In this document: piece by piece, positions 1 through 16,331 of the stretch
How positions within the stretch are numbered: position 1 is the stretch's first letter
Layout of the letters: every line of letters begins with the position of its first letter
Position numbers and translations under genes: made by a program
Notes under the pieces: generated by a model
Told to the model about the DNA's origin: nothing
Databases searched by the model: none
What the model saw: the letters and a program-made list of their open reading frames with translations, nothing else
From: Gemmatimonadota bacterium
GTDB taxonomy: Bacteria > Gemmatimonadota > Gemmatimonadetes > Palauibacterales > KS3-K002
Reading direction: 5' to 3'
Assembly: GCA_039586795.1 (NCBI GenBank)
Contig: JBDHJS010000023.1
Location: 1-53,617, forward strand
DNA: 53,617 bases

Positions 1-288
1 GGTTTCGATGTAGCCGGCGAAGCCTCGTCGGGTATTGAAGCGATTGAGAAGTACAAGGAACTGAAGCCTGACCTGGTCACGATGGATATCGTGATGCCCG
101 ACATGGGTGGTATCGATGCTGTGCGGTCAATCATCGAAGAGGATCCCGACGCGAGAATCCTCATGTGCAGCGCGATGGGGCAGCAGGGGCTGGTGGTGGA
201 AGCGATACAGGCGGGGGCCCGCGACTTCGTGGTCAAACCCTTCCAGCCGTCTAGAGTGCTTGAAGCTGTCCAGCGCTTGATGGGATGA
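1..288 (+). CDS. cheY: Chemotaxis response regulator CheY (5' truncated by window edge)
   Basis: Frame 1 is open from base 1 (GFDVAGEASSGIEAIEKYKELKPDLVTMDIVMP...CSAMGQQ...FVVKPF). Single receiver domain with phospho-Asp (TMD), resembling Bacillus/Thermotoga CheY; ATGA overlap with cheA. Confidence 0.93.
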   Translation, partial: GFDVAGEASSGIEAIEKYKELKPDLVTMDIVMPDMGGIDAVRSIIEEDPDARILMCSAMGQQGLVVEAIQAGARDFVVKPFQPSRVLEAVQRLMG

Positions 289-1919
289 CTCAGCAGGAAA
301 AATACGCAGAGCTATTCGCAGCCGAGGCGCGCGAGCATCTTGCAGAGATCAGCCGCGCCTTCGTCGCGCTCGAGAGCGAGCCGGGCGACCGCGACTCGCT
401 AGACGCCATATTCCGTTCTGTACATACGATCAAGGGGATGGCGGCAGCGATGGGCTATGAGGTCGCATCCAGCCTGGCACATAACATCGAGTCCGCCCTG
501 GATGAGCTTCGCAGCGAGCGGCGACAAGCAGATGCTGATGTTGTCGACATGCTTCTGGAGAGCAGCGACAGGCTAGAAGAAGTCGTCATCGCCACCGTCG
601 AGGGAAAGAAGCCGCCAGATTCCAGCAAAGTGATCGAGCGACTGGTGTTGTGGCGGATCGCGGACGATAGTGCCACACAGCCGGCTCCCGAAGCAGAAAA
701 GACATCGGCACGCCGGAAGAAGACGCGCGATGCCAAAGCGGCGCCGCGGCCTGGACCAGAGCGCGCAACTCGGGCGGACACGCGTATACGCGTAGATATT
801 CGACGCCTTGACGCTCTGATGAACCTGATTGGCGAACTGGCGATCGTGCGGGGCCAGCTTCGCGCACTCGCGCAGCAATCCGGAATTGAGGTGTTGCAGG
901 ACACCGTCGATCGGGCGGGCAGCCTGATCCGCGAGATGCAGATGCACGTCGTCGAAAGCCGGATGGTTCCGGTATGGCAGATCTTCGATCGCTTTCCGCG
1001 GGTCGTTCGAGATGCCGCGCGCGCGCTTGGCAAAGAGATCGAGTTCGAGGTAACCGGCAAAGAGCTCGAGCTCGACCGTACTCTGCTCGATCGGATTAGC
1101 GATCCGTTGGTGCACCTGCTTCGCAACGCTGTGGACCATGGAATAGAACCACCAGCTGAGCGCAAGAAGGCGGGCAAGCCGCAGAGCGGTCGAATAGAAT
1201 TAGCGGCGCGCCGCGAGCGGTCACGCGTGGTCATAGAGGTACGGGATGACGGCCGCGGCATAGATCGCGAGGCCGTGATCAAGAAGGCGCGAGAAGCCGG
1301 GGACTCGGAGCACGAAGCCGAGCCGTCAGCTCAGGAGCTGTTTCGGATAATGGCGCGGCCGGGTTTTTCAACCGCGACGCGCGTGACGGAAGTCTCAGGC
1401 CGGGGCGTTGGGCTCGATGTCGTGCACACGTCGATAAGAGGATTGGGCGGCGCGGTTGATCTTCAGACGGAGAAGGGAGTGGGGACGACATTTCGTCTGG
1501 AACTCCCACTGACGCTGGCCATTCTACGCGCGCTGATCGTCGAGGTGGAAGGTCAGGTCTATGCGCTTCCCGCGACATTCACACGAGAAAGCTTCCAGAC
1601 CGAAGAATCAAACGTGGTGGAGGCCCACGGGCGCGAGTGGATAAGCTGGCGCGACCAGTTGCTGCCGCTCACGCGACTGCCGCGACTGTTCGCAAGTGAT
1701 AATGGAGACGGAGTCAACGGTAAGAACAATTCCGTCCACATAGTGGCCCTGGAGTTCGGCGGTGCTCATCTCGCCGTTTCCGTGGATCGCTTCGTGGGAG
1801 AAGAAGAGATAGTCGTAAAGTCATTTAACACACCGCTCGGCGCGGCTCCCGTTTTTTCCGGGGCGACCGTAAGGCCGGACGGGCGGCCAGCTCTGGTGCT
1901 GGATGTCGGCAGTTTCTAG
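285..1919 (+). CDS. cheA: Chemotaxis histidine kinase CheA (HPt, dimerisation, HATPase, CheW-like; no P2 domain)
   Basis: HPt FRSVHTIKGMA; IRVDIRRLDALMNLIGEL dimerisation start; HLLRNAVDHGIE, DDGRGID and GRGVGLDVV boxes; C-terminal P5. Confidence 0.96.
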   Translation: MTQQEKYAELFAAEAREHLAEISRAFVALESEPGDRDSLDAIFRSVHTIKGMAAAMGYEVASSLAHNIESALDELRSERRQADADVVDMLLESSDRLEEVVIATVEGKKPPDSSKVIERLVLWRIADDSATQPAPEAEKTSARRKKTRDAKAAPRPGPERATRADTRIRVDIRRLDALMNLIGELAIVRGQLRALAQQSGIEVLQDTVDRAGSLIREMQMHVVESRMVPVWQIFDRFPRVVRDAARALGKEIEFEVTGKELELDRTLLDRISDPLVHLLRNAVDHGIEPPAERKKAGKPQSGRIELAARRERSRVVIEVRDDGRGIDREAVIKKAREAGDSEHEAEPSAQELFRIMARPGFSTATRVTEVSGRGVGLDVVHTSIRGLGGAVDLQTEKGVGTTFRLELPLTLAILRALIVEVEGQVYALPATFTRESFQTEESNVVEAHGREWISWRDQLLPLTRLPRLFASDNGDGVNGKNNSVHIVALEFGGAHLAVSVDRFVGEEEIVVKSFNTPLGAAPVFSGATVRPDGRPALVLDVGSF

Positions 1920-1981
1920 TGCCGATCGAAAATAAGCCACGCGAGCATGGCAGCATGATCGAACTTCAGGCGGAAAGGCGA

Positions 1982-2602
1982 ATGAACGATTCACAGGAGC
2001 TCCGGGACTTAGAGCTTGATGCGCTTAAGGAGGTGGCCAACGTCGGTGCAGGTCACGCGGCGACAGCTTTGAGCCAGCTTACCAATCGCCGCATCATGAT
2101 CAACGTGCCAGAAGTCGAGCTTTGCTCGATTGAGGAAGCGGCATCCTCTGTTGGACAGGGGAATCGAGTGGTTGCTGCCGTGTTGATGCAGGTGCTGGGA
2201 GACCTGACGGGGCGTTGCCTGCTTCTGTTCGAGAAAGACGCGGCGATGAAGCTTGCTGATGTGTTGCTGAGCCGGGAGCCGGGCAGCACCAAGGTGTTCG
2301 GCGAGTTGGAGCAATCATCTGTGAAGGAGACCGCCAACATCCTGACGGGAGCGTACCTGAATGGCCTGTCCGATCTGCTGGGACTGATGCTCATCCCCTC
2401 GGTCCCTAGCTTAGCGGTCGATCTCGCCGGAGCCGTCCTGTCCACGACTTATTTGAACTTCGGCCATGATCGGAGCTTCGTGATCATCATGGACACGCGG
2501 TTCATGTTTGAACCGGATTCCGAGGTTATGACAGGCCATCTTGTCTTGTTGCCGGACTCATCAAGCCTGAGCGTCATCCTGAAGGCGGCCAGAGTCAAAT
2601 AG
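1982..2602 (+). CDS. cheC: CheC-family CheY-P phosphatase
   Basis: Two (D/S)xxxExxN sites: DALKEVAN and SSVKETAN. Start placed at ATG 1982 after GAAAGG; the ORF is open from 1919. Confidence 0.92.
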   Translation: MNDSQELRDLELDALKEVANVGAGHAATALSQLTNRRIMINVPEVELCSIEEAASSVGQGNRVVAAVLMQVLGDLTGRCLLLFEKDAAMKLADVLLSREPGSTKVFGELEQSSVKETANILTGAYLNGLSDLLGLMLIPSVPSLAVDLAGAVLSTTYLNFGHDRSFVIIMDTRFMFEPDSEVMTGHLVLLPDSSSLSVILKAARVK

Positions 2603-2608
2603 ACGTGT

Positions 2609-5329
2609 ATGGCTAGAACGGTCTACTCTGAGGGCGATCTTCTCGTTCTGCGGGCTCTTGCCAAGCGCATCGACCCGGGGGACGCCGGTGCGTTCAATAA
2701 TTTGGGGGTAGTCTACTATCAGAAAGCCTTGTTTGAGGATGCGATCGAGCAGTTTCGGCGGGCGCTGGCGATCGATCCGAAGATGGAGGTGGCGCGGCGC
2801 AACCTGGAGATCGCGTACCATCAAACCGGCTATTATGACCGCCAGATTGCTGAGCTGATCGGACGCCTACGCCAGAACGAAGATGACGAGGAAGCACGTC
2901 TGAAATTGGCGGAAGCGTATCTCCAGGTCGGCCGGGTGGACGAGGCGATCAGTCAGTATGAGACCCTGATCAAGTCGCGGCCCGGCGAGGTGCAGGTCCT
3001 CCTCAAGCTTGGCACGGCTGAGAAGAACCGTGGGGAACTGAAGAAGGCCATCGAGTGGTTTGAACGAGCGCGTGCCGTAGACCCGTCCCGGACGTTCGTC
3101 TACCTGCAGCTGGGCGAGATCCTCTACAACCAGGGGATGAACGAGGAAGCGATCGCTCACCTCCGGAAGGCGCTGAAGCTCAACCCCTCCATCGCGGAAG
3201 CGCACCACCTCCTCAGCTTCATCTACGGTGATATAGGCGATTCCGATCGCGCCGCAGAGCACGCGGGCAAGGCGGCGGAGTTGAATCCCGCGGCGGCAAA
3301 AGTGCAGACTAACCTATCGCTCGACCGGTACAGCTCGGCTCGCTACGTGGAGCTTACCGGTAACGTCCAGCCGACGCCCGCGGGGGATGGAGAACAAGCG
3401 TTTGCTCACTATAGCCTGGGCATAGCCTTCAGGGCGCGGGGGTTATACGAGGAAGCGCGGCGCGAATTCGAGAAGGGTCGAGAGGTAGGCGAAGATGAGA
3501 CGCTACTCGACCTGGCGGAAGCCGAACTGACCTTACTGGAAGGTGATGCTGAAGGCGCCCTGGCGCGCTACGACGAGTTGCTGGCTGCGCTACCGGATAG
3601 CGCCAAGGTTTGGAACGAGCGCGGTGTGGCGCTTCATCAGGTTGGCAGGTTGGACGAAGCGGAGGAGAGCTACAGGAGCGCGTTGAGCCTGGACACCGGT
3701 TATGCACTGGCTTGGAACAACGTCGGTGTGGTGAGCGCACATCGTGGCGACTCGGCGGCAGCGGAGGAAACGTTTCGGAAGGCACTTGATGCGCGAGAAG
3801 AACTCGACGATGCGCGGCTCAACTTGGGTTTGCTGTGGGTGAAGACCGAGCGGGCAAGCGAGAGTCTTCAACTCTACCGGAGAATGCTCCGCACGGATCC
3901 TCATCGGGCTGATGCGTGGACCGGACTGGGCTCAGCCCTGGTGTCGATGGGTCGTATCGAGGATGGACGTGATGCTTTCGCCAAGGCCGTTGAGGCGAAC
4001 CCGAACTTCCCGCCGGCGCGCTACAATCTGAGTTTCGCGCTGGCTCGGCTAGGCGACCACGAAGGGGCATTGCGGGAGACCAAGGCAGCCCTCGAGCTGG
4101 ATCCCTACTACACCTCGCCGCGCTTCCGACTGTCGATCGACCTGCAATACGAGGGCGGTGACATCTGGGCTCCCGAACTCGCGGCGCCGGAGCGTATCGA
4201 AGCGCGAGGCCCGGGCGTGCGTGACTTCGAGTTCAATGTTGATGAGCTGGAAGCGGTATTTCAGGAGCTGGATGCAGGCGACGCGGAAGAGGAACTCGCG
4301 CCGGCTGAGCCGCGCCCAATGGCGGAGGACCTGTTTGCCCTAGCCCGTGACTACCTGGCAAACGGGATGTATGACCGAGCGTTGGCGGAGGCGGTCCACG
4401 CGATGCGCGAGGGTGGAGACAATGCGGAGGGCTCGCTGATCGTAGGCGAGATATATCGAAATCGTGGGCTCTACGGTGAAGCACTCGAGCGATTTCAAGA
4501 AGCCAGAAGCGAGCGACCCAAAGACAGAATCGCGCTGGCGGGAGTCGCGAGGTGCCTGCTGCAGCTTGATCGAGCAGAGGATGCGCTGACCGCCGCGGAA
4601 GAGCTGCTACCGTTGGCGGGCGACGATGTAGACATGCTGCTCGTCATCGGCGAGGCGCTGACGCGGGCGGGCGAAGGTGCACGAGCGATCGACGTCCTTG
4701 ATGCGGCTGCGCGAGCGGCGCCGGCGGACGCCACCGTCCACCGACAGGTAGCGCGAGCGGCGTTGGCTGTCGGAAATCACAGGAGAGCCAAAGAGGCTTA
4801 CAGTCGGGCGATCGCCGAGGATCCGGATTTTGCAGCGGCACGCGTCGAACTCGGGCGGATTCTGATCGACGAGGGCTCGTACGGCGATGCGGAAGTCGAA
4901 ATCCGGCAGGCTCTGGAGCTGATGCCGACCTACGCCGAGGCGAATCTGGTGCTGGCAGACTTGATGGTACGTCAGGGTCGGCAGCGAGAAGCGATCAACT
5001 CGCTGGCCGACTTACTCGAGACGCAGCCATACAACCCGGAGGGGCTCGTTATGCTCGGCGAGGCGCTGGCTCGTGAAGGTCGGCGGCGGGACGCCTATCA
5101 CGCGTTGCAGAGGGCACAGCGCTTCGATCCAGAGCGAATCGATGTCCTGTTCCGTCTCGGCGAGCTTGCCGGTGAATCAGGACGCTATCGGGACGCGCTG
5201 CACTATTGGCGGCAGCTGATCGATGTGGCGCCGGAGAGCGAGTTGGCGGCACGTGCAAAAATACAGGCGCGGATGATACTGGGGTCGAGCTACGCGCTCG
5301 ACGGTGCGGTCTCAGGGAGTAGTGTCTGA
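2609..5329 (+). CDS. Large multi-TPR protein (906 aa), possible SgmX-like MglA scaffold
   Basis: Many TPR-type repeats (e.g. AFNNLGVVYYQKALFEDAIEQFRRALAIDP, VWNERGVALHQVGRLDEAEESYRSAL); acidic central linker; no signal peptide. Confidence 0.88.
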   Translation: MARTVYSEGDLLVLRALAKRIDPGDAGAFNNLGVVYYQKALFEDAIEQFRRALAIDPKMEVARRNLEIAYHQTGYYDRQIAELIGRLRQNEDDEEARLKLAEAYLQVGRVDEAISQYETLIKSRPGEVQVLLKLGTAEKNRGELKKAIEWFERARAVDPSRTFVYLQLGEILYNQGMNEEAIAHLRKALKLNPSIAEAHHLLSFIYGDIGDSDRAAEHAGKAAELNPAAAKVQTNLSLDRYSSARYVELTGNVQPTPAGDGEQAFAHYSLGIAFRARGLYEEARREFEKGREVGEDETLLDLAEAELTLLEGDAEGALARYDELLAALPDSAKVWNERGVALHQVGRLDEAEESYRSALSLDTGYALAWNNVGVVSAHRGDSAAAEETFRKALDAREELDDARLNLGLLWVKTERASESLQLYRRMLRTDPHRADAWTGLGSALVSMGRIEDGRDAFAKAVEANPNFPPARYNLSFALARLGDHEGALRETKAALELDPYYTSPRFRLSIDLQYEGGDIWAPELAAPERIEARGPGVRDFEFNVDELEAVFQELDAGDAEEELAPAEPRPMAEDLFALARDYLANGMYDRALAEAVHAMREGGDNAEGSLIVGEIYRNRGLYGEALERFQEARSERPKDRIALAGVARCLLQLDRAEDALTAAEELLPLAGDDVDMLLVIGEALTRAGEGARAIDVLDAAARAAPADATVHRQVARAALAVGNHRRAKEAYSRAIAEDPDFAAARVELGRILIDEGSYGDAEVEIRQALELMPTYAEANLVLADLMVRQGRQREAINSLADLLETQPYNPEGLVMLGEALAREGRRRDAYHALQRAQRFDPERIDVLFRLGELAGESGRYRDALHYWRQLIDVAPESELAARAKIQARMILGSSYALDGAVSGSSV

Positions 5330-6462
5330 TGCCTATCGAGGGATCGCTGCGCGAGTTTGCGCTTCACGACATCTTCCAGCTCCTTCACTTGTCGAGGAAG
5401 ACTGGTGACCTGGAGATCGTGCGCGAGCCGTCGGGTACTCGTGGCCTGGTGAAGTTCTCCGGCGGCGCCGTGGTTGGCGCGGAAGTCGATGAGGAGACGC
5501 CGCGACTTGGGTACATACTCCTGAATGCTGGGAAGATCACCGAGGCCGACCTTCGCGAAGCCGACAAGCTGCGTGCGCAAGATCCATCTCGTAGTTGGTC
5601 GAGCGTTTTTGGCTCGCTTGCGGCAATGGAACAGGATGACCTGGATCAGTACATGAAGTTCCAAATCGAGGAATTGGTGTACGAGATCCTTGATTGGCGT
5701 GACGGCCGGTTTTCGTTCGGCGAGCGCGCTGTGGAGGAGACGGAAAGCGTCACCTGGATTCCCGTCGAGTCTCTGCTCATGGAAGGTGCGCGCCGTGCGG
5801 ACGAACTATCGCAACTCTCAACGGCAATCGAGAGTCCTCAGGCCGTGCCCAGGCTCTCCGAGCGTGCGGCGTCTGAGACTTCGCTGCTGGACCTCGCTCC
5901 AGAAGAATGGGAAGTCCTCGGCCGCATCGATGGTGTGAATGATTTAAGGTCGATAGCGACCACGCTGGGTCGGAGCGAGTTCGATGTCAGCAAAGTCGTA
6001 TCACGGTTGGCGGAGCACGGTTTGATCGAGATCGTCTCACAGGATGGATCCGGGACCCAGCCTCCGCACGAGGTGATGTTGGATCGGATCGCAGACTTGA
6101 TCGAGCACGACGAACTGGCCGAAGCTCGTGCTAAGCTGCGTAGAGTTCTGGAGAACTTCCCGGACGAGCCGCGGGCGCACTATCTAGCAGCCCGGTCACT
6201 AGAGCGCGAGGGCCGATATGGTCCGGCGGCGGCGAGCTACGAGGCGACGGTGAATCTGGATCCGCTGGCGGCAGATGCCCGGCAGCGTCTTGGGCTGGTG
6301 AAGCTCAGACTAGGAGATATCGATGGGGCGTCCCGAGCCTGGACGGCCTATCTGCGCATGGCCGCCGACACGCCAGAACGTCGACGTGTCGAGCGAGCGA
6401 TGACGGCTCTTCATGAACTTGAACTAATACTCAACGAGTTCGATGGCAGGGAACACCCGTAG
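5329..6462 (+). CDS. DUF4388 (PATAN-like) domain protein with C-terminal TPRs
   Basis: N-terminal EGSLREFALHDIFQLLHLSRKTGDL and WRDGRFSF...ESLLMEGARRADE are typical of DUF4388; followed by a winged-helix-like segment and TPRs; TGATG overlap with the previous gene. Confidence 0.85.
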   Translation: MPIEGSLREFALHDIFQLLHLSRKTGDLEIVREPSGTRGLVKFSGGAVVGAEVDEETPRLGYILLNAGKITEADLREADKLRAQDPSRSWSSVFGSLAAMEQDDLDQYMKFQIEELVYEILDWRDGRFSFGERAVEETESVTWIPVESLLMEGARRADELSQLSTAIESPQAVPRLSERAASETSLLDLAPEEWEVLGRIDGVNDLRSIATTLGRSEFDVSKVVSRLAEHGLIEIVSQDGSGTQPPHEVMLDRIADLIEHDELAEARAKLRRVLENFPDEPRAHYLAARSLEREGRYGPAAASYEATVNLDPLAADARQRLGLVKLRLGDIDGASRAWTAYLRMAADTPERRRVERAMTALHELELILNEFDGREHP

Positions 6463-7249
6463 ATCGCTTCAGGAATTGAGCGACGAGGTCGCGACCAACC
6501 CGAACTCCACGGCGTTCGTGGAGTTAGCCGGTCTGTACAGGGAGCGTGGTGATCTCGATCGCGCGATGCGGTTGTGTCTGCGGGGGCTGCAGCGTCACCC
6601 GACGCATGTCGAAGCACATTTCGAACTCGGGAGGATATACGAAGCGCGGGGCGAGCGAGAGCTCGCCCTCGATGAGTGGGAGATGGTACAGCAGCTGGCG
6701 CCGGACCACCTGTCGTCACGCCTGGCCTCGGTCGAGCTGTACTTGGAGGAGGGGCGCAACGTCGAGGCCGAGTCGGAGCTGAAGGAGGCGGAACGACTTG
6801 CGCCGGACCATTCGTCTGTCACCGCGCTCCGCAAACTCGTCGACACGTTGCCGAAGGAGCCCGAAAGCGAACCGGAGCCTGCGGAACCGGGGGGCGTCTT
6901 TGACGCCATCGAGGCCGACCCAGGCACGCTGGGGGTCATGCTTGTCGATTCGGACGGTGGGTTCATCGAGGGCCATGCGCCGGGCAGCGAAAACGCATCC
7001 GAGGCAGCCGTGGGCGTGAACTTGATAAGCGCGCGTGCCGAGGCTGAGCGCGTGGCGTCGTACCTGGAGCTCGGTGACCTGAAGGGCATGGTTGTCGAGG
7101 GCTCCGGGGCGCGACTTACGATATCTCCGGTCGGCCGCGACGTCATCATCGTGGCGACGAAGAGTGACCTGCCGGCTGGTCAGGCTGCGCGTCTGGCTCA
7201 GCGGGCGTGGGCCGCTGCGGAGGGATACCTGAGCGACATGGGACGATGA
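6443..7249 (+). CDS. TPR + Roadblock/LC7 (MglB-like) fusion protein
   Basis: N-terminal TPRs (AFVELAGLYRERGDLDRA; AHFELGRIYEARGE), Pro/Glu linker, then a Roadblock pattern (PGTLGVMLVDSDG...LELGDLKGMVVEGSGARLTISPVG). Confidence 0.8.
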   Translation: MAGNTRRSLQELSDEVATNPNSTAFVELAGLYRERGDLDRAMRLCLRGLQRHPTHVEAHFELGRIYEARGERELALDEWEMVQQLAPDHLSSRLASVELYLEEGRNVEAESELKEAERLAPDHSSVTALRKLVDTLPKEPESEPEPAEPGGVFDAIEADPGTLGVMLVDSDGGFIEGHAPGSENASEAAVGVNLISARAEAERVASYLELGDLKGMVVEGSGARLTISPVGRDVIIVATKSDLPAGQAARLAQRAWAAAEGYLSDMGR

Positions 7250-7614
7250 AGCCCGACGCTTATAAGAGCCTGATTGCCGACATGATGGGCGTGCCGGGCG
7301 TACGTGGAGCGCTGGTAGTGGCGGTACGCGATGGACTGGTCGTCGACGGACGAGTGCATGTCGGCGTGAAGGGTGACGCAATCGCCGCGCTGGCGGCTTC
7401 TCTGTTCCGCCGGGCTTGCCAGGCGACCGGCAATGGAGATGGGAGCTTGCGGTTTGTAGAGGTCGAGGCGGAACACGGTCGCATGATCATAGCGGGGTTG
7501 GAAGAGTTGGCCTTGTTGGCGGTGTTGGAGAACCGCGCGAACGCTGGACAAGCTCGCCTTGCTGTTCGGCGCGCTGCTGAGACGCTGGCTACGATGGAAA
7601 AGCATAGTGAATGA
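7246..7614 (+). CDS. Roadblock/LC7 domain protein (MglB/MglC-like)
   Basis: VPGVRGALVVAVRDGLVV...AIAALAASLF...VEVEAEHGRMII...NAGQARLAVRRAA. ATG 7246 overlaps the upstream TGA (ATGA). Confidence 0.85.
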   Translation: MKPDAYKSLIADMMGVPGVRGALVVAVRDGLVVDGRVHVGVKGDAIAALAASLFRRACQATGNGDGSLRFVEVEAEHGRMIIAGLEELALLAVLENRANAGQARLAVRRAAETLATMEKHSE

Positions 7615-8098
7615 GCGACTGAACCTGCGGCAGATTCAGGAAGCCTTCTCTACACCGCTCGTCGATTTTGTGAACGAGTCGGGCGTGGCGCTGGCTGTCT
7701 TGATCAACCGGAGTGGACAGGTTCTCGCTCAGCACGGCTTCGATCGCGTCTTTGACCTGGTGGGCGTGGCTTCATTGGCAGCCGGAATCAACGCCTCCAG
7801 TCGAGCGCTGGCGATGCAGCTCGGCGAGGAGCAGTTCGAGCATCTTCATCACGCTGGATCGAGAAGGCAGTTGTTTCTCGGCCACTTTGATTCAGCTGCG
7901 GGCCAACTGATGCTCGTTGCGGTTTTCGATGGCAATTCATCTATCGGCTTGGTTCGGCTCTTCTTCGAAGAGTTTGTCGGCCAGATCCGTCGACTACCCT
8001 CGATGGATGTATCGAGGAAGTCGGTCAGCGCAGGGGATTTCGAGACTGAGCTCGAGACCAGTCTCGATCGGTTCTTCAAAGGCTTAATAGGCAGCTGA
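7607..8098 (+). CDS. mglB: MglB-type GTPase-activating Roadblock protein
   Basis: LINRSGQVLA, ASLAAG..A..ALA.QLGE.QF, VAVFDGNSSIGLVRL and an acidic C-terminal helix (ELETSLDRFF) match Myxococcus/Thermus MglB; directly upstream of mglA; GTG 7607 start inferred. Confidence 0.85.
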   Translation: MNERLNLRQIQEAFSTPLVDFVNESGVALAVLINRSGQVLAQHGFDRVFDLVGVASLAAGINASSRALAMQLGEEQFEHLHHAGSRRQLFLGHFDSAAGQLMLVAVFDGNSSIGLVRLFFEEFVGQIRRLPSMDVSRKSVSAGDFETELETSLDRFFKGLIGS

Positions 8099-8100
8099 TT

Positions 8101-8742
8101 ATGTCGCTAGTGAACTACGCGACTCGCGAGATTACGTGCAAGATCGTCTACTACGGGCCAGGTCGGTCCGGCAAGACGACCAACTTGCAGTACATACACA
8201 GCCGCGTGCCGTGGGATCGAAAAGGCGAGATGGTCTCGTTGGCTACCGATACTGACCGCACGCTGTTCTTCGATTTCCTGCCTCTGGAACTGGGGCACAT
8301 TTCCGGCTTCACGACTCGGTTCCAGCTTTACACAGTCCCCGGTCAAGTCTACTACAACGCAACCCGGAAACTGGTACTCCAGGGAGCTGACGGAATCGTC
8401 TTCGTGGCAGATAGTCAGAAGTCTCAGGTCGACGCTTCTTTGGAATCATTCCGCAACCTGCACGAGAACCTGTTGGAACATGGCATAGATATCCGCCATA
8501 TCCCCGTCGTCATCCAGTACAACAAGAGGGATCTCCCCAACGTGTTCAGTCTCGAGGAGCTGGAGGAGGAGATCAACTTCCGTAACGTTCCCAGCTTCCC
8601 GGCCTCCGCGCTACTGGGTGAGGGGGTGTTCGACACACTCAGATCGGCCAGCGAGGGTGTCTTGAGGAAACTGGCCAGCAAGTTGGAGATCCCTGCGGAT
8701 GTTACGGAGGACGAGGAGGCAGAGCGTGACAGTCTCCGTTGA
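8101..8742 (+). CDS. mglA: MglA small Ras-like GTPase
   Basis: REITCKIVYYGPGRSGKTTNL (G1), DRTLFFDFLPL (intrinsic Arg finger), LYTVPGQVYY (catalytic Gln), NKRD (G4). Confidence 0.96.
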   Translation: MSLVNYATREITCKIVYYGPGRSGKTTNLQYIHSRVPWDRKGEMVSLATDTDRTLFFDFLPLELGHISGFTTRFQLYTVPGQVYYNATRKLVLQGADGIVFVADSQKSQVDASLESFRNLHENLLEHGIDIRHIPVVIQYNKRDLPNVFSLEELEEEINFRNVPSFPASALLGEGVFDTLRSASEGVLRKLASKLEIPADVTEDEEAERDSLR

Positions 8743-9904
8743 TCCGAACCTGACCTTCGAATCGTTCGTAGTAGGCCCGGAGAACCGGCTTGCCTGGGAG
8801 GCGGCGCGTACGGCAGCCGAGTCACCTGGCTCTGCGTACAACCCGCTCTTCATCTACGGGGACACCGGACTCGGAAAGACTCATCTGCTGGTCGCCATCG
8901 CCAACCGGGCCGGCGAGCTTAACGCGGAGTTCAAGGTCGCGTACACGCCGCTAGAGCAGCTGCTAACGCAGGCGAAGGACGAGGATGATGGAGGGGCAGC
9001 GTTCCGGGAGGCGGACCTTCTCCTGGTTGATGATCTCCAATTTCTCGGACCCAAGAGCGAGAGCCAGCACGTCCTCTTCCATCTTCTGGATCACCTGCTC
9101 ATGGCCGGCAAGCAGGTAGCGCTTGCATGCGATAGGCCGCCTCTCGAACTGGGGCAACTGGACGACCGACTTCTCTCACGTTTCAGCGGTGGCCTGGTAG
9201 TGGATGTCGGGAAGCCAAACCTGGAGACGAGGCGATCGATCCTCGAGCTGCGGTTGACTGCAATCGGGGCGTCGCTCAGATCGGATGTCATCGATGCTGT
9301 CGCGCGATTGGCGATAGAAAACGTTCGCCAACTCAAGGGAGCTTTGAACCGCGTACTTGCCGCTCAGAAGGCGGAAAACCGCGATGTCTCGTCAGATGAG
9401 ATCGACCGGTTGCTAGCCGATGTTGTTGCGGATCCAGACATGCCGTGGCTCAGCGACGAAGCGAATCAAACGGGCGCCGAGTTCAGGGATTTTCTGGACG
9501 ATGTATCGGTCGCTGTGGAAGAGGCGCTGGGTGCACCCAAATGGCGTGAGGACTTGGCCAGAGCGATCCTCAAGTGGGAAGCGGAGGGCTATTCGACCAA
9601 GCGTCTGGATGCGTTCCTCGACCGTGAAGAGATAGTCGATTCTGAACAAGTCGTCGCGGCCTACGAACGAGATATAGAGACACTTCAGTCGATAGGCGAG
9701 GAGGTAAATGGCCTGGGCGCAAAGCTACCGGATAAAAGCGTGCTGCATGACCCGGACCGCCTGGACGAGCTGCGAGATCTCCTGTCCGAAATACGTCGCG
9801 AGAACGTGACTGTAGATGAGTTCTTCAACGATTCCGAGAAGGTCATCTGGGACTGGCCGGTGACCGAGGAGAAACTGATCGAGAGCTGGGACGATGGCAA
9901 TTAA
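8726..9904 (+). CDS. DnaA/Hda-family AAA+ ATPase lacking DnaA domains I, II and IV, with an unrecognised C-terminal domain
   Basis: TFESFVVGPEN, YNPLFIYGDTGLGKTHLL (Walker A), LLVDDLQFL (Walker B), CDRPP, RLLSRF, NVRQLKGAL. No domain IV HTH (no GGRDHTTV-like motif). GTG 8726 preceded by GAGGAGG. Confidence 0.88.
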   Translation: MTVSVDPNLTFESFVVGPENRLAWEAARTAAESPGSAYNPLFIYGDTGLGKTHLLVAIANRAGELNAEFKVAYTPLEQLLTQAKDEDDGGAAFREADLLLVDDLQFLGPKSESQHVLFHLLDHLLMAGKQVALACDRPPLELGQLDDRLLSRFSGGLVVDVGKPNLETRRSILELRLTAIGASLRSDVIDAVARLAIENVRQLKGALNRVLAAQKAENRDVSSDEIDRLLADVVADPDMPWLSDEANQTGAEFRDFLDDVSVAVEEALGAPKWREDLARAILKWEAEGYSTKRLDAFLDREEIVDSEQVVAAYERDIETLQSIGEEVNGLGAKLPDKSVLHDPDRLDELRDLLSEIRRENVTVDEFFNDSEKVIWDWPVTEEKLIESWDDGN

Positions 9905-11522
9905 GGGTAGCCTAAAGGAAGCCAGCCTCACCGATGTCCTCCAGCTGCTGGCGATGGGGGGCAAGACGGGCTGTCTGTCGGTCACGGACCGACAGAGCTT
10001 CGGCTACATCTATTTCGACGAAGGTCGAATTGTCTACTCCTCGCTGCTCAATCGACGGGATCGGCTTGGCGACATTCTCGTGAGAGAGGGAGCCGTGACG
10101 AGGGAGCAACTTGATCAGGCCCTCGAGGAGCAAAGCAATACGAGAGACGGCCGGCGGATAGGTGAGATACTGTGCGATCGGGAATCGCTGAGCCCGAAGA
10201 CGCTTAAGAAGTACGTCCGCCACCAGATCGAGGAGGCGGTGTACCATCTGTTCACCTGGAGTCAGGGGACCTTCTACTTCGAGCCAAACCAGCGGCCGGA
10301 GAGAGAAGAAATCCTGGTCTCAATAGATCCTGAAAGCCTGCTATTGGAGGGTGCGCGGCGCGTCGATGAATGGAGCCAGATTGAAAAGAAGATACAATCG
10401 CTTGACGTCATATTCTCGCTCGATGCAGACAAGTCAGTCGCGCTCTCTTCATTAAAGCTAACCCCGGAGCAGGAAACGGTCCTGGAATATCTGGATGGTA
10501 AACACTCCGGTTGGGCGATCATCGACGAGTCAGCGCTTGGCGAGTTCGAGGTAGGTAAGGCGCTGTTCGGGCTTGCGTCCGCCGGTTTGATCAGGAAGAC
10601 GGGGCGACAAGAGCGGCAGCGCCCGAAGATGGAGACGAAGGCGCGAGTCGACGAACACCGGAATCTGGGCGTTGCGTTCTATCGGACGGGGATGTTCGAT
10701 GAGGCCGTACGCGAACTCAAACAGGTCATCGAGCTCGAACCGAGCGCGCTGGATGCGGAGTTCTACCTTGGGCTCATAGAGTTACGCAGTGGAAAGCTGT
10801 CGGTGGCCGAGTCGATTTTCCGCGCAATCCTGGAGAAAGGTGGTTCGAGGGCCGGCGTGTTCAACAACCTCGCCCACGTTTTGGCGGGTCAGGGAAGGAC
10901 GTTGGAGGCGCTGGCTCTTCTGGAGGAGGGGATAAAGAGGTCGGAGAACAGTCCGAAGCTTCACCTTTCGAAGGCCCTTCTCGAGCTGAAGACAGGCGAC
11001 CCGGCAGCTGCAAAAACCACCCTCGAAGACTATGAGAAACTCGAGGACGCCAGGTTAACGGCGCTGTACTATTCGACGAAGGCCTTGGCCCAGGCGATGT
11101 CGGCAAACATGGACGCTGCCATCATCGCGCTCGAGGAAGGTCTGGAAAGCCATCCGAACTCGGCCGCGCTCGCGAACAACGCCGGAGTGATTTGGGAGCG
11201 GAAAGGAGACGAGGACCGAGCACGGCAGTTGTACGAGAGGGCATTCGATAGCGAGCCGGACATCCCGCAGGTTTCGAAGAACGTGGCAGACCTCCTGTAT
11301 CGCGAGGGAAACTACGATGAGGCGGCGGAGATCTATGAACGCGCTATTCGCGCCGATGCCGACCTGGGTGACGATATCTATGCCAAGTTGGGCAATGTGT
11401 ACTACAAGAGCAGGGCTCGGGAGAAGGCGATAGAGATGTGGTTGAGAGCGTTGGAGCTCAACCCAGAAAACGAAGTCGTGCGCACTAACCTGGAATTTGT
11501 GAAAGACGTCAACGGTGGGTAG
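9894..11522 (+). CDS. DUF4388 + MshEN-like motif + TPR protein
   Basis: MAIKGSLKEASLTDVLQLLAMGGKTGCL (DUF4388); RLGDILVREGAVTREQLDQALEEQ (MshEN consensus); SLLLEGARRVDEW; several C-terminal TPRs. Confidence 0.86.
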   Translation: MAIKGSLKEASLTDVLQLLAMGGKTGCLSVTDRQSFGYIYFDEGRIVYSSLLNRRDRLGDILVREGAVTREQLDQALEEQSNTRDGRRIGEILCDRESLSPKTLKKYVRHQIEEAVYHLFTWSQGTFYFEPNQRPEREEILVSIDPESLLLEGARRVDEWSQIEKKIQSLDVIFSLDADKSVALSSLKLTPEQETVLEYLDGKHSGWAIIDESALGEFEVGKALFGLASAGLIRKTGRQERQRPKMETKARVDEHRNLGVAFYRTGMFDEAVRELKQVIELEPSALDAEFYLGLIELRSGKLSVAESIFRAILEKGGSRAGVFNNLAHVLAGQGRTLEALALLEEGIKRSENSPKLHLSKALLELKTGDPAAAKTTLEDYEKLEDARLTALYYSTKALAQAMSANMDAAIIALEEGLESHPNSAALANNAGVIWERKGDEDRARQLYERAFDSEPDIPQVSKNVADLLYREGNYDEAAEIYERAIRADADLGDDIYAKLGNVYYKSRAREKAIEMWLRALELNPENEVVRTNLEFVKDVNGG

Positions 11523-12318
11523 CGACGATCGCGCCTATTCCTCGCTGTTCTCACGGCTAGAGCGGGAACGCGGATTCAAGGGAGCCGCGTATCGCCAGAA
11601 GTGTTTGCGCCGCCGCGTTGCTGTGCGTATGCGGGCCCGGGGTATGGCCGATGTTGATGAATACGCGGCGTTGCTCGACGCCGACCCTACCGAGTATGAC
11701 AGGCTTCTCTGTGTTTTGACCATCAATGTCAGCAAGTTCTTCCGCAATCCAGAGACTTGGGAGGTGATCCAGAAGGACGTTCTCCCTGAGCTTCTTCAGC
11801 GATCCAGCTCGCTGCTGATGTGGAGCGCGGGGTCGGCCGCTGGTGAAGAGGCCTACAGCCTGGCGATAATGACCTGGGACTGGCTGACGCGCCACCGACG
11901 TGACATATCGAATGGCCTCCGCATCATCGGGACCGACATTGACAACCAGAGCCTGGAGGCTGCCCGAGCGGCCGAGTACTCGGAGGCTGCTCTGGATGAG
12001 ACACCAGACGACGTCAAGCGCCGCTGGTTCAAGCTTGATGATGTGTGGCGATTGAAGGAGCCAATTCCTCAACTTGTGGAGTTTCGGCAGCGCGACATCC
12101 TTTCCGGTCGACCTGATTTTGACGCGGACCTGATACTCTGCCGCAATCTTCTGATCTACCTAGACAGGGAAGCACAACGGCGGGTGTTTCAGGTATTCAT
12201 GGATACACTGCGGACGGACGGCTATCTGGTGTTGGGACGCGTAGAGATGCTTCCGTCGGTGTTCAAGAAGAACTTTGAGGTTGTGAACGCGCGAGAGCGT
12301 GTCTACAAGAAGAAATGA
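11515..12318 (+). CDS. cheR: Chemotaxis protein-glutamate methyltransferase CheR
   Basis: LTINVSKFFRNP, WSAGSAAGEEAYSLA, IIGTDID, LILCRNLLIY, GYLVLG. Confidence 0.93.
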   Translation: MGSDDRAYSSLFSRLERERGFKGAAYRQKCLRRRVAVRMRARGMADVDEYAALLDADPTEYDRLLCVLTINVSKFFRNPETWEVIQKDVLPELLQRSSSLLMWSAGSAAGEEAYSLAIMTWDWLTRHRRDISNGLRIIGTDIDNQSLEAARAAEYSEAALDETPDDVKRRWFKLDDVWRLKEPIPQLVEFRQRDILSGRPDFDADLILCRNLLIYLDREAQRRVFQVFMDTLRTDGYLVLGRVEMLPSVFKKNFEVVNARERVYKKK

Positions 12319-12794
12319 AGTATTACGTCTCGCTGGGTGAGCGCCGTGTTGGCAGGGCGGAGGGCATGTTTGCGGTTCTCGGCCTGGGGTCGTGCGTCGT
12401 GATCGTGCTCTATGATCCCGCGAGCTCAGTGGGTGGAATGTCGCATGTGCTTCTTCCGGATCCTTCGTACAACGACAACGCCGCTCGTCGTTGGAGATAT
12501 GCAACCACGGCGGTTCCAGGGCTCCTGGACGAAGTTGTGTCGGCTGGAGGGTCAAAGGCGAACATCACGGCGCGGCTAGTGGGCGGCGCGAGCATGTTCG
12601 GTGAGCTGCTTCCAAAGGGAGAGCCGAATATCGGAGAGCGAAATGTCGAGGCCGCTCGATCGGCGCTGAAGGAAGCGGGCATACCTCTAGTAGGTGAGGA
12701 CGTAGGCGGCGACTACGGTCGATCAGTGTATTTCAAGTTGAGCGACGGCCGACTCCGGGTTAAAGCTCATGGAAGGGAACATGTCGAAGTCTGA
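12315..12794 (+). CDS. cheD: Chemoreceptor glutamine deamidase CheD
   Basis: LGLGSCV (catalytic Cys), GGMSHVLLP (His), LVGGASMF, IGERN, EDVGGDYGRSV. Confidence 0.93.
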   Translation: MKYYVSLGERRVGRAEGMFAVLGLGSCVVIVLYDPASSVGGMSHVLLPDPSYNDNAARRWRYATTAVPGLLDEVVSAGGSKANITARLVGGASMFGELLPKGEPNIGERNVEAARSALKEAGIPLVGEDVGGDYGRSVYFKLSDGRLRVKAHGREHVEV

Positions 12795-13869
12795 GCCCGT
12801 TGGCCAAGCGAGGTCGGTGCTCGTTGTCGATGACAGCGTGTTCATGCGGCGCATGATCTCCGACATGATCGGACGTTTCCCCGGATTCGAGGTCGTGGGG
12901 ACAGCGGCAGACGGAGAGGAAGCGCTGCGGCTGATCGAAGCCCATGATCCAGCTGTCGTCACCCTTGACATCGAAATGCCTCGTCTCGATGGATTTGGCG
13001 TGTTAGAGCGGGTGATGTCATCGACGCCGAAGCCTATCGTGGTTCTCTCCGCATACACCGGCGAAGGAAGCGACGCGACATTGCGAGCGCTGGAACTTGG
13101 TGCCGTCGAGTTTGTAGCCAAGCCTTCCGGGCCGATTTCCTTCGATCTTGCTCGTGTGGAAGGCAGACTCTACGAAGCGCTACAGGCGGCGATTGTCGCG
13201 GACCTGGACGCACTGCTGAAAGAGCGCCGCGGGGGGACGCCGCGGTCTGTAGCTGCAAGCGACACCGGTGAGTTAAAAGTGGTAGCCATCGCTGCGTCCA
13301 CCGGAGGCCCCCGCGCTCTGGCGTTTATCTTGAGTGCTCTTCCCACCAACCTTGGAGCGGCCGTCCTCATCGTCCAACACATGCCACCCGGCTTCACTTC
13401 GACGCTGGCATCGCGTCTCGATGAGATTTGCCCGCTACCGGTGCATGAAGCGAGCGGCGGCGAACCGATTTTGGCGAACCACGTATGGCTAGCACCGGGT
13501 GACTTCCACATGAGAGTCCGGCGAATCGATGGCGAGGTGCGTCTGTCGTTGGATCAGCAGGAGCCGATGTGCGGGACGCGGCCAGCGGCCGACGCATTGT
13601 TCCCGACGGTGGCAGCTGTATTCGGTCAGGGTTCGGTAGGGGTGGTCCTGACGGGGATGGGACGCGATGGCGCAGATGGGCTTGCCGCGATTCGAGCTGC
13701 CAGCGGTCGCACTATCGCTCAGGACGAAGAGAGCAGCGTCGTCTTTGGCATGCCGGGCAAAGCCGTGGAACAGGGTGCGGCGGAACAGGTAGTCGCGCTC
13801 GACAGGATTCCGGAGGCGATCGTCGAATCGCTGAATTCTATCTCATCGCAGTCGCGGAGCGCACGGTGA
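12781..13869 (+). CDS. cheB: Chemotaxis methylesterase CheB (REC + esterase)
   Basis: REC VLVVDDS/TLDIEMP; catalytic triad IAASTGGP, VQHMP, LTGMGRDG. ATG 12781 follows GGAAGGG (ORF open from 12769). Confidence 0.96.
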   Translation: MSKSEPVGQARSVLVVDDSVFMRRMISDMIGRFPGFEVVGTAADGEEALRLIEAHDPAVVTLDIEMPRLDGFGVLERVMSSTPKPIVVLSAYTGEGSDATLRALELGAVEFVAKPSGPISFDLARVEGRLYEALQAAIVADLDALLKERRGGTPRSVAASDTGELKVVAIAASTGGPRALAFILSALPTNLGAAVLIVQHMPPGFTSTLASRLDEICPLPVHEASGGEPILANHVWLAPGDFHMRVRRIDGEVRLSLDQQEPMCGTRPAADALFPTVAAVFGQGSVGVVLTGMGRDGADGLAAIRAASGRTIAQDEESSVVFGMPGKAVEQGAAEQVVALDRIPEAIVESLNSISSQSRSAR

Positions 13870-14864
13870 AGGACCTGGTGACGTTCCGCGTTGGTGGTTC
13901 GAGATACGCGCTACCTGCCGAACTGGTGACAGAGGTTGTTGAGATCGAACCCGTAGCGCACCAGGTGCTGGCCGAGCAGGACAGCCAGGCGCCTGGACTG
14001 ACGCAGATCAGAGGTCGATGGGTTCCGGTGATCGAGTTGGCCGGAACGCTCCCCGATTGTGAGCCCCTGCGTTCCGCTGAAGAGGGCACGGTGCTTTTGG
14101 TACTGGGCCGTGGCGCGAACCAGCTGGGGCTGAAGATCGAGGAGCTAGGCGATGTAGTTCCGGCTGGCGAGGGTCGAACGCCGACGGGGCCCAGCTCCGA
14201 GCTGTTCATCGAGATCAACGGGGACTTGATACGCTACATCGACCCGGCGCTTCTCATCGATTCGCAGGCGAGTTTGCTGGTTGATCAAGGGGGAATGATG
14301 GAGGAGCACCAGACGGTACCCGATGCCAAGAAGGTCGTTGCCTTCAAGGTGTGCGCCGACGAATTCGCGGTAGATGTCATGAGCGTACGCGAGGTTTTGA
14401 AGGTCAGCGACGTGCGCCCGGTCCCCAAGGCGCCGGATTTTGTCGAAGGCGTAGTGGGCGTGAGAGATGCTGTGATTCCTGTCATCGATATGCGCAAGCG
14501 TTTTAGCCTTCCCGAGCGCGATGCCGGGGTGGAAGGGCGGCTCCTGGTTGTGACCACTGGTGATGGCCAGGTCGCTCTTGTGGTTGACGACGTACCCGGG
14601 GTCGTCGAGCTTCCTCTTGACGAGCTGAGTCCAGCTCCCGACTTCTTCAAGGGGCTGGCCGGTCGATACCTGGAGGCGATCGCGCAGTCCGGAGAGAGTC
14701 TTATTATACTTCTGAACCTGGATGAGATTCTTTCCTCGAAGGAGAAGATCGCGCTCAAGAAGATGATCAATGGAGGAAAAGGGTCGACCAGGAAGGCCAA
14801 GCCGGCTTCGGCAAAGCCACGGAAGAAGCGGACCACGCGGCGCACAAAGAAGGACCCAGGTTGA
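13866..14864 (+). CDS. cheW: Tandem CheW-CheW protein with Lys/Arg-rich tail
   Basis: First, degenerate CheW: LVTFRVGGSRYAL...GLTQIRGRWVPVIEL. Second, canonical CheW: VVAFKVCADEFAVDV..VREV..VPKAPDFVEGVV.VRD.VIPVIDMRKRF. GTG 13866 overlaps the cheB TGA. Confidence 0.88.
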   Translation: MKDLVTFRVGGSRYALPAELVTEVVEIEPVAHQVLAEQDSQAPGLTQIRGRWVPVIELAGTLPDCEPLRSAEEGTVLLVLGRGANQLGLKIEELGDVVPAGEGRTPTGPSSELFIEINGDLIRYIDPALLIDSQASLLVDQGGMMEEHQTVPDAKKVVAFKVCADEFAVDVMSVREVLKVSDVRPVPKAPDFVEGVVGVRDAVIPVIDMRKRFSLPERDAGVEGRLLVVTTGDGQVALVVDDVPGVVELPLDELSPAPDFFKGLAGRYLEAIAQSGESLIILLNLDEILSSKEKIALKKMINGGKGSTRKAKPASAKPRKKRTTRRTKKDPG

Positions 14865-15056: not shown

Positions 15057-15872
15057 TTGGCCGAAACGCTCGCCCAAGCTGTAGAGCCGCCTCCAAGGAT
15101 GCCCGGGCTGCCTGCCGATATTCTGAATGGTGACCCGATCACCATTAACCTACCCCCGGATCGCCAGACCTTCGATTCACTAGCGCCAGGCGCCCCGGAC
15201 TGGAGCGCCGGCCTGGCGTTCCCTGAAGGAGACCAGATCGTACTGCCGACGTTCAACTACCGGTCAGGCGCTCAGTTGGTCTCCGTACTTCGTCATGAAT
15301 TGGCTCATGTTGCGGTAGGTCGCTATTTGGGCTCCATAGCGCCCCGCTGGTTTCACGAGGGCTACGCCCAGCTCGCCGCGGGCAGCTGGCGGGCCGAAAG
15401 CGCTTGGGAACTGCGTGTGGCCATCCTCCTTGGCCGAGTTCCTTCGTTGGAGAACCTCAGCCTTGACTTCCGGCGCAGCAGAATCGATGCCGAGCATTCC
15501 TATCTACTGTCTTATACCGCCGTCGAGTACATGTATCGGCTCGGCGGATCCGGCGGCTTTCAGGCGCTGCTGGAAAACTGGCGGTCGGGCGGTGACCTGG
15601 ACCGTGCGCTGCGAGGCACCTACGGAATCACTCTGTCACGGTTCGAGAGATTATGGCGGCAGGATGTGGCTGGTCGCTTTGGGTGGCTTCTGGTGCTTGC
15701 CCAGACGGCGATCTACTGGACGGCGTTGACGATCCTATTGCTGGTTATGGGGTACTGGAAGAAAAGGAGGAACCGAAGGAGATTGCGGGCCCTGGAGGAG
15801 AGGGAGAGAGAGGCGAGCGAGTCACAAGCGGCCGAAGGGGCAGAAGGTGTGACAGGCTACAATTCTGAATAA
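15057..15872 (+). CDS. Zinc metallopeptidase (peptidase MA-like), C-terminally membrane anchored; true start probably further upstream
   Basis: VLRHELAH zinc motif, PRWFHEGYA, C-terminal TM helix followed by a basic stretch. The frame is open upstream to 14865 and includes a signal-peptide-like segment. Confidence 0.8.
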   Translation: MAETLAQAVEPPPRMPGLPADILNGDPITINLPPDRQTFDSLAPGAPDWSAGLAFPEGDQIVLPTFNYRSGAQLVSVLRHELAHVAVGRYLGSIAPRWFHEGYAQLAAGSWRAESAWELRVAILLGRVPSLENLSLDFRRSRIDAEHSYLLSYTAVEYMYRLGGSGGFQALLENWRSGGDLDRALRGTYGITLSRFERLWRQDVAGRFGWLLVLAQTAIYWTALTILLLVMGYWKKRRNRRRLRALEEREREASESQAAEGAEGVTGYNSE

Positions 15873-16257: not shown

Positions 16258-16331
16258 GGGCGCGTAGCTCAGCTGGCAAGAGCGCTGCCCTTACAAGGCA
16301 GAGGCCCCTGGTTCGAGTCCAGGCGCGCCCA
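16258..16331 (+). tRNA. tRNA-Val (anticodon TAC), CCA not encoded
   Basis: Acceptor GGGCGCG/CGCGCCC-A; D arm TAGCTCAGCTGG..AGAGC; anticodon stem CTGCC-CTTACAA-GGCAG; T loop GGTTCGAGTCC. Confidence 0.97.

Follow-up and report, generated by a model that had tools for sequence, protein, structure and literature searches.

Chemosensory (Che) control of a Ras-like polarity switch is debated in Myxococcus, in which the parts are scattered. Here we describe a 53,617-nucleotide stretch of DNA (the window), which is the entire contig C18 of a 4.68 Mb, 97.8% complete Gemmatimonadota genome (GCA_039586795.1) and in which candidate parts of such a circuit lie in one string of genes, together with an ATPase derived from the replication initiator DnaA. 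The polarity module of Myxococcus xanthus (MglA, MglB, MglC, RomRX, and SgmX under Frz) is alike in having a group 1 MglA, an MglB, extra Roadblock proteins, a big TPR scaffold, and a likely type IVa pilus output. In M. xanthus, however, mglA does not lie near its partners (according to an excerpt of PMC4316618), whereas polarity and che genes are interleaved in the window, which also adds a second, dedicated MglA with an arginine in its P-loop, two PATAN proteins, and the DnaA-derived ATPase. Unlike the Frz pathway (FrzE architecture as given in an excerpt of PMC3945109), the CheA is not fused to a receiver and is accompanied by CheC and CheD.

The M. xanthus Dif system (class F1) shares a stand-alone CheY, a receiver-less CheA, CheC, a receptor that may be 44H-like, and nonflagellar use, but DifE has a P2 domain (same excerpt of PMC3945109) for which the CheA described here gives no match. 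The operon differs further from Dif in carrying no receptor and in possessing an eight-gene polarity insert and a CheR/CheD/CheB adaptation arm. Cyanobacterial Tax/Pil systems with PatA-type PATAN-REC regulators (PixE, PixG, and PilG) are comparable in their Che operon and in a PATAN domain with an MshEN-like alpha-clip as output, which in the window would likewise act on PilB/PilC; in the window, by contrast, PATAN is fused to TPR rather than to a receiver, CheY is separate, and the core is of the CheC/CheD type. The ATPase resembles DnaA domain III and Hda in its AAA+ fold, nucleotide motifs, and 39% identity to the host's own DnaA, but differs in having a helical repeat unit and tail in place of domain IV, single or tandem AAA domains, and clades of its own. 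The operon is probably a variation on the control of polarity and pili by Che systems, to which it adds one new family of components, the DnaA-derived ATPase.

A full-text literature search, which did not cover subscription papers and bioRxiv supplements, found no description of the operon or the ATPase, in agreement with an earlier note on this DNA whose author knew of none. Part of the neighbourhood is already in print, since MglA is recorded near PATAN genes and Gemmatimonas GAU_1409 is given as PATAN>MglA>-PATAN> (PMC4316618, in excerpt), a pattern matching the reduced form found in two relatives (G093 and G125). CheA, CheC, and DnaA are unmentioned in the portion of supplement 3 of that paper that lists GAU_1409. 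The conserved operon is real and apparently undescribed. Because its parts share one string, deletion variants exist, and a matching order is listed for the cultured Gemmatimonas aurantiaca, the Myxococcus question becomes testable in a second phylum; the operon also provides a first lead on how a group abundant in soils and sediments, belonging to a widespread, little-studied class, behaves on surfaces.

Fifteen genes lie on the + strand, eight of them forming an insert with three che genes before it and four after it, each label being backed by Pfam, NCBIfam, or PDB matches:

1-288, +: cheY (Response_reg, E 2e-23), its 5' end truncated by the contig edge and matched on contig C42
285-1919, +: cheA, 544 aa, with an Hpt domain (His47), dimer, HATPase kinase, and CheW-like domains and no P2 or receiver match in Pfam; the sole CheA found in the genome
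1982-2602, +: cheC phosphatase (PF04509; NF041093, E 2e-45), the reading frame being open from 1919
2609-5329, +: all-TPR scaffold, 906 aa (Pfam TPR)
5329-6462, +: PATAN/DUF4388 protein A (PATAN-A; PF14332, E 8e-26), with a degenerate MshEN-like clip and TPR
6443-7249, +: TPR-Roadblock fusion (Pfam)
7246-7614, +: stand-alone Roadblock/LC7 protein, MglC/MglB-like (PF03259, E 8e-8)
7607-8098, +: MglB paralogue, candidate GTPase-activating protein (GAP; PDB MglB, E 8e-12; NF052242 weak)
8101-8742, +: second MglA GTPase (PDB MglA, E 1e-76; P-loop GPGRSGKT)
8726-9904, +: DnaA-derived ATPase, single-AAA form, 392 aa (Bac_DnaA, E 3e-46), comprising the AAA+ domain (8738-9421), a helical repeat unit (9473-9805), and a conserved tail (9806-9895)
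9894-11522, +: PATAN/DUF4388 protein B, the hub (PF14332, E 6e-41), its PATAN domain split by an MshEN clip (10056-10226) that is followed by a small helix-strand domain and then a TPR groove (10680-11378)
11515-12318, +: cheR methyltransferase (Pfam)
12315-12794, +: cheD deamidase (Pfam, NCBIfam)
12781-13869, +: cheB, receiver plus methylesterase (PRK00742, above cut-off)
13866-14864, +: CheW with two domains, 332 aa, in place of which most relatives have a pair of cheW genes

The earlier note had counted at least 14 co-oriented, mostly overlapping or abutting genes, with che blocks bracketing an eight-gene insert, and this anatomy holds, except that the string begins outside the window: an extra cheW and CheY residues 1-21 lie at the end of contig C42, preceded by ileS, a dksA-like gene, lspA, and rluD. 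When the longest open reading frames (ORFs) are used, 12 of the 14 junctions overlap and the remaining two are gaps of 2 and 6 bases. Starts based on homologues are likelier for the Roadblock (7246), mglB (7607), ATPase (8726), cheB (12781), and cheWW (13866) genes, and cheC probably starts at 1982 on the same grounds. A Pfam scan of the operon string found no methyl-accepting chemotaxis protein (MCP) gene. The 906-aa scaffold, for which the 60 PDB matches listed comprised generic TPR structures only, may be SgmX-like by analogy, SgmX being an MglA effector with 14 TPRs.

Conservation and natural deletions of the operon

Protein B anchored the locus searches, hence its presence in the retrieved loci is by construction; the best 80 of 668 loci were used, 78 of them from named Gemmatimonadota and two labelled only "bacterium", with Candidatus Kutchimonas denitrificans as the best named relative (72% identity in protein B). 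The exact cheC-to-cheB order occurs in 30 of the 38 informative loci (those with both ends reached), the other eight lacking cheR, cheD, mglB, or every che gene. Identical order recurs in six families, so the arrangement is far beyond chance, and a synteny search of the kind proposed in the earlier note reveals conservation across the class Gemmatimonadetes. Each of the 80 loci has the ATPase gene directly upstream of protein B, and in 56 of them the two genes overlap by one base. The non-AAA part of the ATPase matched 195 of 301 genomes of the phylum (a tally that includes the host genome and G177, which is flagged unpublished), among them 16/18 genomes of the same family and 0/12 of the sister family.

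A panel of 80 selected genomes was examined by six marker searches, from which nine genomes of another class, all without protein B, were removed to leave 71; as the panel was picked to include variants, its proportions are not frequencies. Protein B is present in 52 of the 71, and neither operon cheA nor operon mglA ever occurs without it. Both operon CheA and MglA accompany protein B in 36 genomes, MglA without CheA in three (G012, G186, and G206), CheA without operon MglA in two (G079 and G098), and neither in 11, all of family f6.

These natural deletion variants reveal which parts depend on which. G012 and G206 retain cheY beside the MglA module after loss of cheA, cheC, cheR, cheD, cheB, and all receptors, and G186 has lost cheY as well as the rest of che. 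Partial losses comprise cheR/D/B (G067 and G253), the Roadblocks and cheR (G093 and G125), and mglB (G093, G125, G206, and L083). In G079 and G098 mglA and the ATPase are gone (the latter was not found with the linker profile), and protein B lacks the MshEN clip and last TPR. Seven f6 loci are reduced to the ATPase, protein B, and a peptidase, a family in which the marker searches gave 11 such genomes. Some relatives have lost the Che arm but not the MglA arm, and others the reverse, so the two arms do not require each other, and the constant centre of the operon is the ATPase plus protein B rather than a CheA-to-MglA relay.

Independent loss of each arm, and the occurrence of another mglA elsewhere in all 52 hub-positive genomes, would also fit a reading in which three separate systems (Che pathway, MglA switch, and ATPase-PATAN pair) are co-regulated from one promoter at a conserved place in the chromosome without being wired together. 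We consider this fairly improbable, because the insert divides the che genes into the same two blocks across six families, because cheY persists in G012 and G206 after the remaining Che components and receptors have disappeared, and because the flagellar target of CheY was not found in 25 of the 38 panel genomes that carry operon CheA. FliG is absent from those 25, in 22 of which the operon CheA is the sole CheA.

All 38 carriers of operon CheA have at least two PilT-family ATPases, and a PilT count of two or more is found in 51 of the 52 hub-positive genomes versus 4 of the 19 hub-negative ones; within family f6 the count is 2-4 in hub-positive and 0-1 in hub-negative members (in both comparisons kin are not independent). 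Receptors track CheA: MCPs were detected in 37 of the 38 genomes with operon CheA and in not one of the 32 class genomes devoid of CheA. In sister family f2 and in 9 of 20 f6 panel genomes the whole string is absent, mostly together with mglA and mostly with a single pilT, which may mark a loss of twitching.

The DnaA-derived ATPase and protein B

The AAA+ domain of the ATPase has the fold of DnaA domain III (8bv3: target template-modelling score 0.91, root-mean-square deviation 1.7) and retains the Walker A/B, arginine finger, and sensor II motifs. There is no Bac_DnaA_C (domain IV) match, and the protein scores below the cut-offs for both DnaA (TIGR00362, 245 versus 343.9 bits) and Hda (TIGR03420, 90.8 versus 194.8). 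The region that in DnaA has the role of the initiator-specific motif shows a six-residue deletion and a degenerate QEEFFHTFN stretch. The linker between the AAA+ and helical domains was modelled with low confidence. Tandem-AAA forms account for 61 of 68 ATPases and single-AAA forms, including that of the window's family, for seven; in the f6 tandem proteins the second AAA domain has no Walker A. A quick tree of 72 rows places the AAA domains in two separate groups apart from Gemmatimonadota DnaA, and not with Escherichia coli Hda, itself a long branch. Residues of the tail motif (EKVIWDWP-type) are at least 90% conserved in 88 sequences; an Atlas search with the C-terminal part returned no match. 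In two loci (L007:823-2819 in G149 and L032:8397-10302 in G315) the tandem ATPase reads as two ORFs, with the break immediately ahead of the helical domain; this break is either real or an assembly error.

Since it keeps the domain III fold and nucleotide motifs, and since the locus lies between divIVA and the mraZ-dcw (division and cell wall) cluster, the ATPase might be thought to co-oligomerise with or titrate DnaA, or to act like Hda, so linking replication or division to pole identity. This coupling is improbable given the missing domain IV, the altered initiator-specific motif region, and the scores under the DnaA and Hda cut-offs. The ATPase was also not found in 19 of the 71 class genomes, several of them single-contig, and archaeal-labelled proteins also combine this helical repeat with DnaA-type domains (see below). 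The host has a normal dnaA on contig C68.

Protein B contains a PATAN domain and carries C-terminal TPR where PatA-type regulators carry a receiver; a fold search with it recovered generic TPR structures only. Its clip scores 54.7 bits against NF053729 (cut-off 38) and aligns to MshE (5htl) and PilB/PilF. Binding between the ATPase and protein B was predicted beforehand from the deletion pattern and the conserved tail. The resulting complex model, which scored 0.87 over three runs against a best value of 0.00 among three controls, places ATPase residues 361-390 on TPR residues 263-495 of protein B, with contacts that agree by at least 55% between runs and a partner predicted local distance difference test (pLDDT) value of at least 71. 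Of 157 solved complexes, 116 attain the mark used for this score, as do 2 of 215 mismatched pairs, counts that are approximate here because custom alignments were used. We predict that the ATPase tail docks in the TPR groove of protein B.

Candidate control of type IVa pili

Intact catalytic motifs are observed in the MglA arm, as are its anatomy, conservation, and co-occurrence with the remaining operon genes. The operon MglA aligns to M. xanthus MglA with E 1e-76 and has the G1 P-loop, Arg53, Gln82 in TVPGQ, and NKxD (here NKRD), which we take to be the residues on which a group 1 MglA depends (the intrinsic arginine, the glutamine, and the NKxD motif). (P/A)GRSG, RTLFFD, and TVPGQ are present in 65/65 scored copies, and an MglB Roadblock partner adjoins the gene, 31% identical to the host's canonical MglB. 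Together with the PATAN and TPR adaptors, these retained residues are consistent with the MglA switch suggested in the earlier note. All 65 scored copies also have the P-loop arginine (GPGRSGKT) where canonical MglA has leucine, a substitution that may alter GAP dependence.

A search of the host genome found one each of CheA, CheC, CheD, and CheR, and two receptors on contigs C56 and C24, neither linked to the operon. Type IVa pilus genes are present (pilMNOPQ, pilB-pilT-pilC, and a second pilT) and a flagellum was not detected in the 97.8% complete genome, in which neither FliG nor a basal-rod protein was matched. The operon is therefore the only chemosensory system found in a piliated host without detectable flagella. 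The circuit is not the self-contained one that the earlier note had proposed, since the operon encodes neither receptors nor a pilus motor and a second mglBA, canonical in type, is found elsewhere, beside recR. The flagellum-versus-pilus comparison that the note called for comes out in favour of the pilus. Myxococcus-type gliding was considered and set aside: GltG, the gliding gene searched for, had no match above cut-off in the host. At C56:3308-6296 the C56 receptor directly follows a periplasmic binding protein that was assigned by eye to the branched-chain amino-acid class and is a likely ligand input to the pathway. PilB (C50:34812-36536) has an N-terminal MshEN-like segment whose first motif starts LIGDLL instead of RLG, and cyclic di-GMP (c-di-GMP) reading may therefore have shifted to protein B.

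The Che arm has several features of class F1, namely CheC with CheD, a stand-alone CheY, and a CheA without a receiver. Its best NCBIfam scores, none of which reached the cut-off, were to models of Thermotogales CheC/CheD and Halobacteria CheA/CheY. The C56 receptor has as its best PDB match 2ch7, a Thermotoga MCP that we take to be a 44H receptor, and aligns to it without a heptad-sized gap in the N-arm and with small gaps in the C-arm; on this alignment it may be of the 44H class. A Frz assignment does not fit, there being no FrzE-like CheA-receiver fusion and, unlike in Frz with its linked cytoplasmic receptor, no MCP in the operon, and a role in flagellar rotation finds no FliG or basal-rod match in the host and no FliG in the 25 carriers mentioned above. 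The Dif pattern, in which difD-difE-difG are accompanied by genes for the receptor DifA and the CheW protein DifC, is only partly present: a cheW lies upstream, yet the receptors are on C56 and C24 and none is in the string.

We lean towards reading the operon as surface-motility control for type IVa pili, in which Che and MglA inputs converge on the ATPase-protein B pair and set motor activity and pole. This reading draws on the often flagella-free carriers (25/38), on the link to multiple PilT copies, and on the published behaviour of PATAN and of MglA with SgmX. In Synechocystis, PATAN binds both PilB1 and PilC and suffices on its own to reverse phototaxis (bioRxiv 2021.06.11.447907, in excerpt), and Myxococcus MglA acts on pili through the TPR protein SgmX (bioRxiv 2024.03.11.584430, in excerpt). 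We infer each interaction and the output as follows. The TPR groove of protein B would hold the C-terminal tail of the ATPase, its PATAN domain would, by analogy to cyanobacterial PATAN, act on the pilus motor PilB/PilC, and its MshEN clip would, judging from its motif, read c-di-GMP, while the ATPase would serve as an ATP-dependent oligomeric switch or scaffold and not as a DNA binder. A first input, from the dedicated MglA/MglB/Roadblock switch with TPR and PATAN-A adaptors, may select the pole. The second may come from an F1/Dif-type pathway in which two unlinked receptors signal through CheA to CheY, with CheC, CheR, CheD, and CheB providing termination and adaptation of the signal. Phosphorylated CheY and MglA would then reach the protein B-ATPase pair by way of PATAN-A and the TPR and Roadblock proteins, and the action of phosphorylated CheY in trans on PATAN/TPR proteins would make for a split PatA-type regulator. 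The sole hint of a CheY-to-MglA connection is the retention of cheY by the MglA module in two of the three panel genomes without cheA and receptors.

Several observations weigh against this pilus-control reading. Any contact between Che and Mgl proteins is putative, and the two arms have been lost independently (three MglA-only, two CheA-only, and 11 genomes with neither); two named loci (L052 and L064) have no che gene at all. PilT occurs in 76 of the 80 panel genomes, so that its presence alone says little, and G206, an assembly of 480 contigs, keeps the module although PilT was not found there. The locus sits between divIVA-ileS-lspA-rluD and mraZ-dcw, away from the pil genes. In the MshEN clip of the window's protein B the first motif is canonical and the second degenerate, and the strict RLGxxL-type 24-residue motif is present in 49/95 first and 34/95 second halves. 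As to docking, the controls were unrelated proteins with no TPR paralogue from the operon among them, and the score may reflect likeness, solved structures being rich in TPR-peptide complexes. The groove exceeds the remaining TPR in conservation by a modest margin (0.66 versus 0.59, p 0.023), and its asparagines are retained in G079 and G098 despite the missing ATPase; the losses in these two genomes may be a single event.

A different use of the same parts would be Dif-like surface sensing, with pili as the input, c-di-GMP read by the clip, and exopolysaccharide, adhesion, or a lifestyle switch as the output. It is favoured by the cheY-cheA-cheC order, which the earlier note had likened to difD-difE-difG and which with the putatively 44H-like receptor does resemble Dif, by the alignment of the C56 receptor to 2ch7 without a heptad-sized N-arm gap (DifA being 44H in an excerpt of PMC3945109), by 14 GGDEF matches in the host, and by retention of a Che system without flagella. 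We nevertheless judge it unlikely, as the known pilus and polarity regulators MglA, MglB, and PATAN lie within the string, a DifA-like receptor is absent from the operon, and no polysaccharide gene was recognised in the loci, which were annotated against a custom reference set and by eye.

Archaeal-labelled repeat proteins and the chromosomal address

The helical part of the ATPase (window 9473-9805) is an unnamed repeat of ~95 residues (W-x-x-E-G-Y ... L-x-D-P-D) without a Pfam model, also seen in proteins P0200-P0347; it is single in the bacterial ATPase and reaches 17 or more copies elsewhere. A helical-domain profile built from 18 sequences matched 468 cluster representatives. Among the best 150 of these, 148 were new; 37 of the new ones had at least three tandem copies, and seven of the 37 also had a DnaA-type ATPase, with no domain IV match in the seven; others are fused to DUF835, a KaiC-type ATPase, or zinc ribbons. 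Thirty repeat proteins were looked up, of which six belong to archaeal-labelled clusters, one to a bacterial cluster, and 23 to clusters without an organism. The archaeal labels are Thermoplasmatota (four, including the cluster of one ATPase-bearing protein), Thermoplasmata (one), and Bathyarchaeia/Thermoproteota (one). Reciprocally, a profile of 82 repeats found only the operon ATPase among 20,455 host ORFs (E 3e-11, next 0.12).

Proteins P0203, P0204, P0206, P0218, P0237, P0289, and P0343, and P0355-P0358, are 1,080-1,420 aa long, one of their clusters being labelled Thermoplasmata, and combine a possible DUF2226/PATAN-like N-terminus, 5-8 helical repeats, and a well-conserved DnaA ATPase without domain IV, often with zinc ribbons. 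Identity of the archaeal N-terminal domain with PATAN is a lead: the hhalign match is weak (probability 3-5%, P 0.008 versus 0.064 for the reversed control), and the Atlas values for DUF2226 (0.88) and PatA_N (0.84) are both under the 0.9 mark, with no Pfam match. The archaeal ATPase domains form their own group among DnaAs. A common origin with the bacterial ATPase domains was rejected under the model used (approximately unbiased test of the forced grouping, p 0.024; quick LG+G4 tree of 31 of the 72 rows, long branches and near-copies dropped). Because they do not group with the operon's domains, the archaeal pairing of repeat and DnaA looks independently assembled. One metagenome scan for the genomic context of the archaeal proteins was empty and another gave one weak locus.

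To our knowledge, archaea do not use DnaA, and the DnaA-type ATPase in archaea merits separate study. The operon ATPase would put the DnaA engine to a use other than DNA replication; it comes with a specific, testable prediction of binding, and its archaeal counterpart was unexpected. More broadly, the ATPase and the PATAN-TPR protein might constitute a new class of signalling engine, in which an initiator ATPase is reused to gate a pilus-type motor, Che and MglA are optional plug-ins, and the same three parts (PATAN/DUF2226-like domain, helical repeat, and DnaA ATPase that lacks domain IV) came together a second time, within a single polypeptide, in Thermoplasmata archaea, so that the design would span two domains of life; we regard this as doubtful but conceivable.

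Promoter and terminator scans gave results at chance level (2 versus 4.1 expected and 12 versus 10.7). RNA data were not used as evidence of co-transcription: the runs contained 5-7% of the sequence words, and low-depth (2-3.5x) exact RNA contig pieces, some of which cross cheY/cheA, PATAN-A/TPR-Roadblock, and cheD/cheB (24 of 171 pieces listed), were set aside because contigs cannot prove a single transcript and DNA carry-over is possible.

Downstream of the string lie a peptidase gene, a tRNA gene, and a TPR gene, followed by mraZ and the dcw cluster:

15057-15872, +: Peptidase_MA_2 (HExxH), the string's last gene in most relatives, minimal forms included
16258-16331: tRNA-Val(TAC), flanked by the peptidase and TPR genes

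The peptidase gene adjoins protein B even in loci reduced to the ATPase and protein B. In most relatives cheW is followed by a coiled-coil/TPR gene, which in the host has been relocated to contig C17 (17610-18596). The address of the operon is constant across the class, with divIVA-pnp-ileS-lspA-rluD (plus yggS in relatives) on one side and mraZ-rsmH-dcw on the other, represented in the host by C42:62-6591 and the window from 18467 onward.

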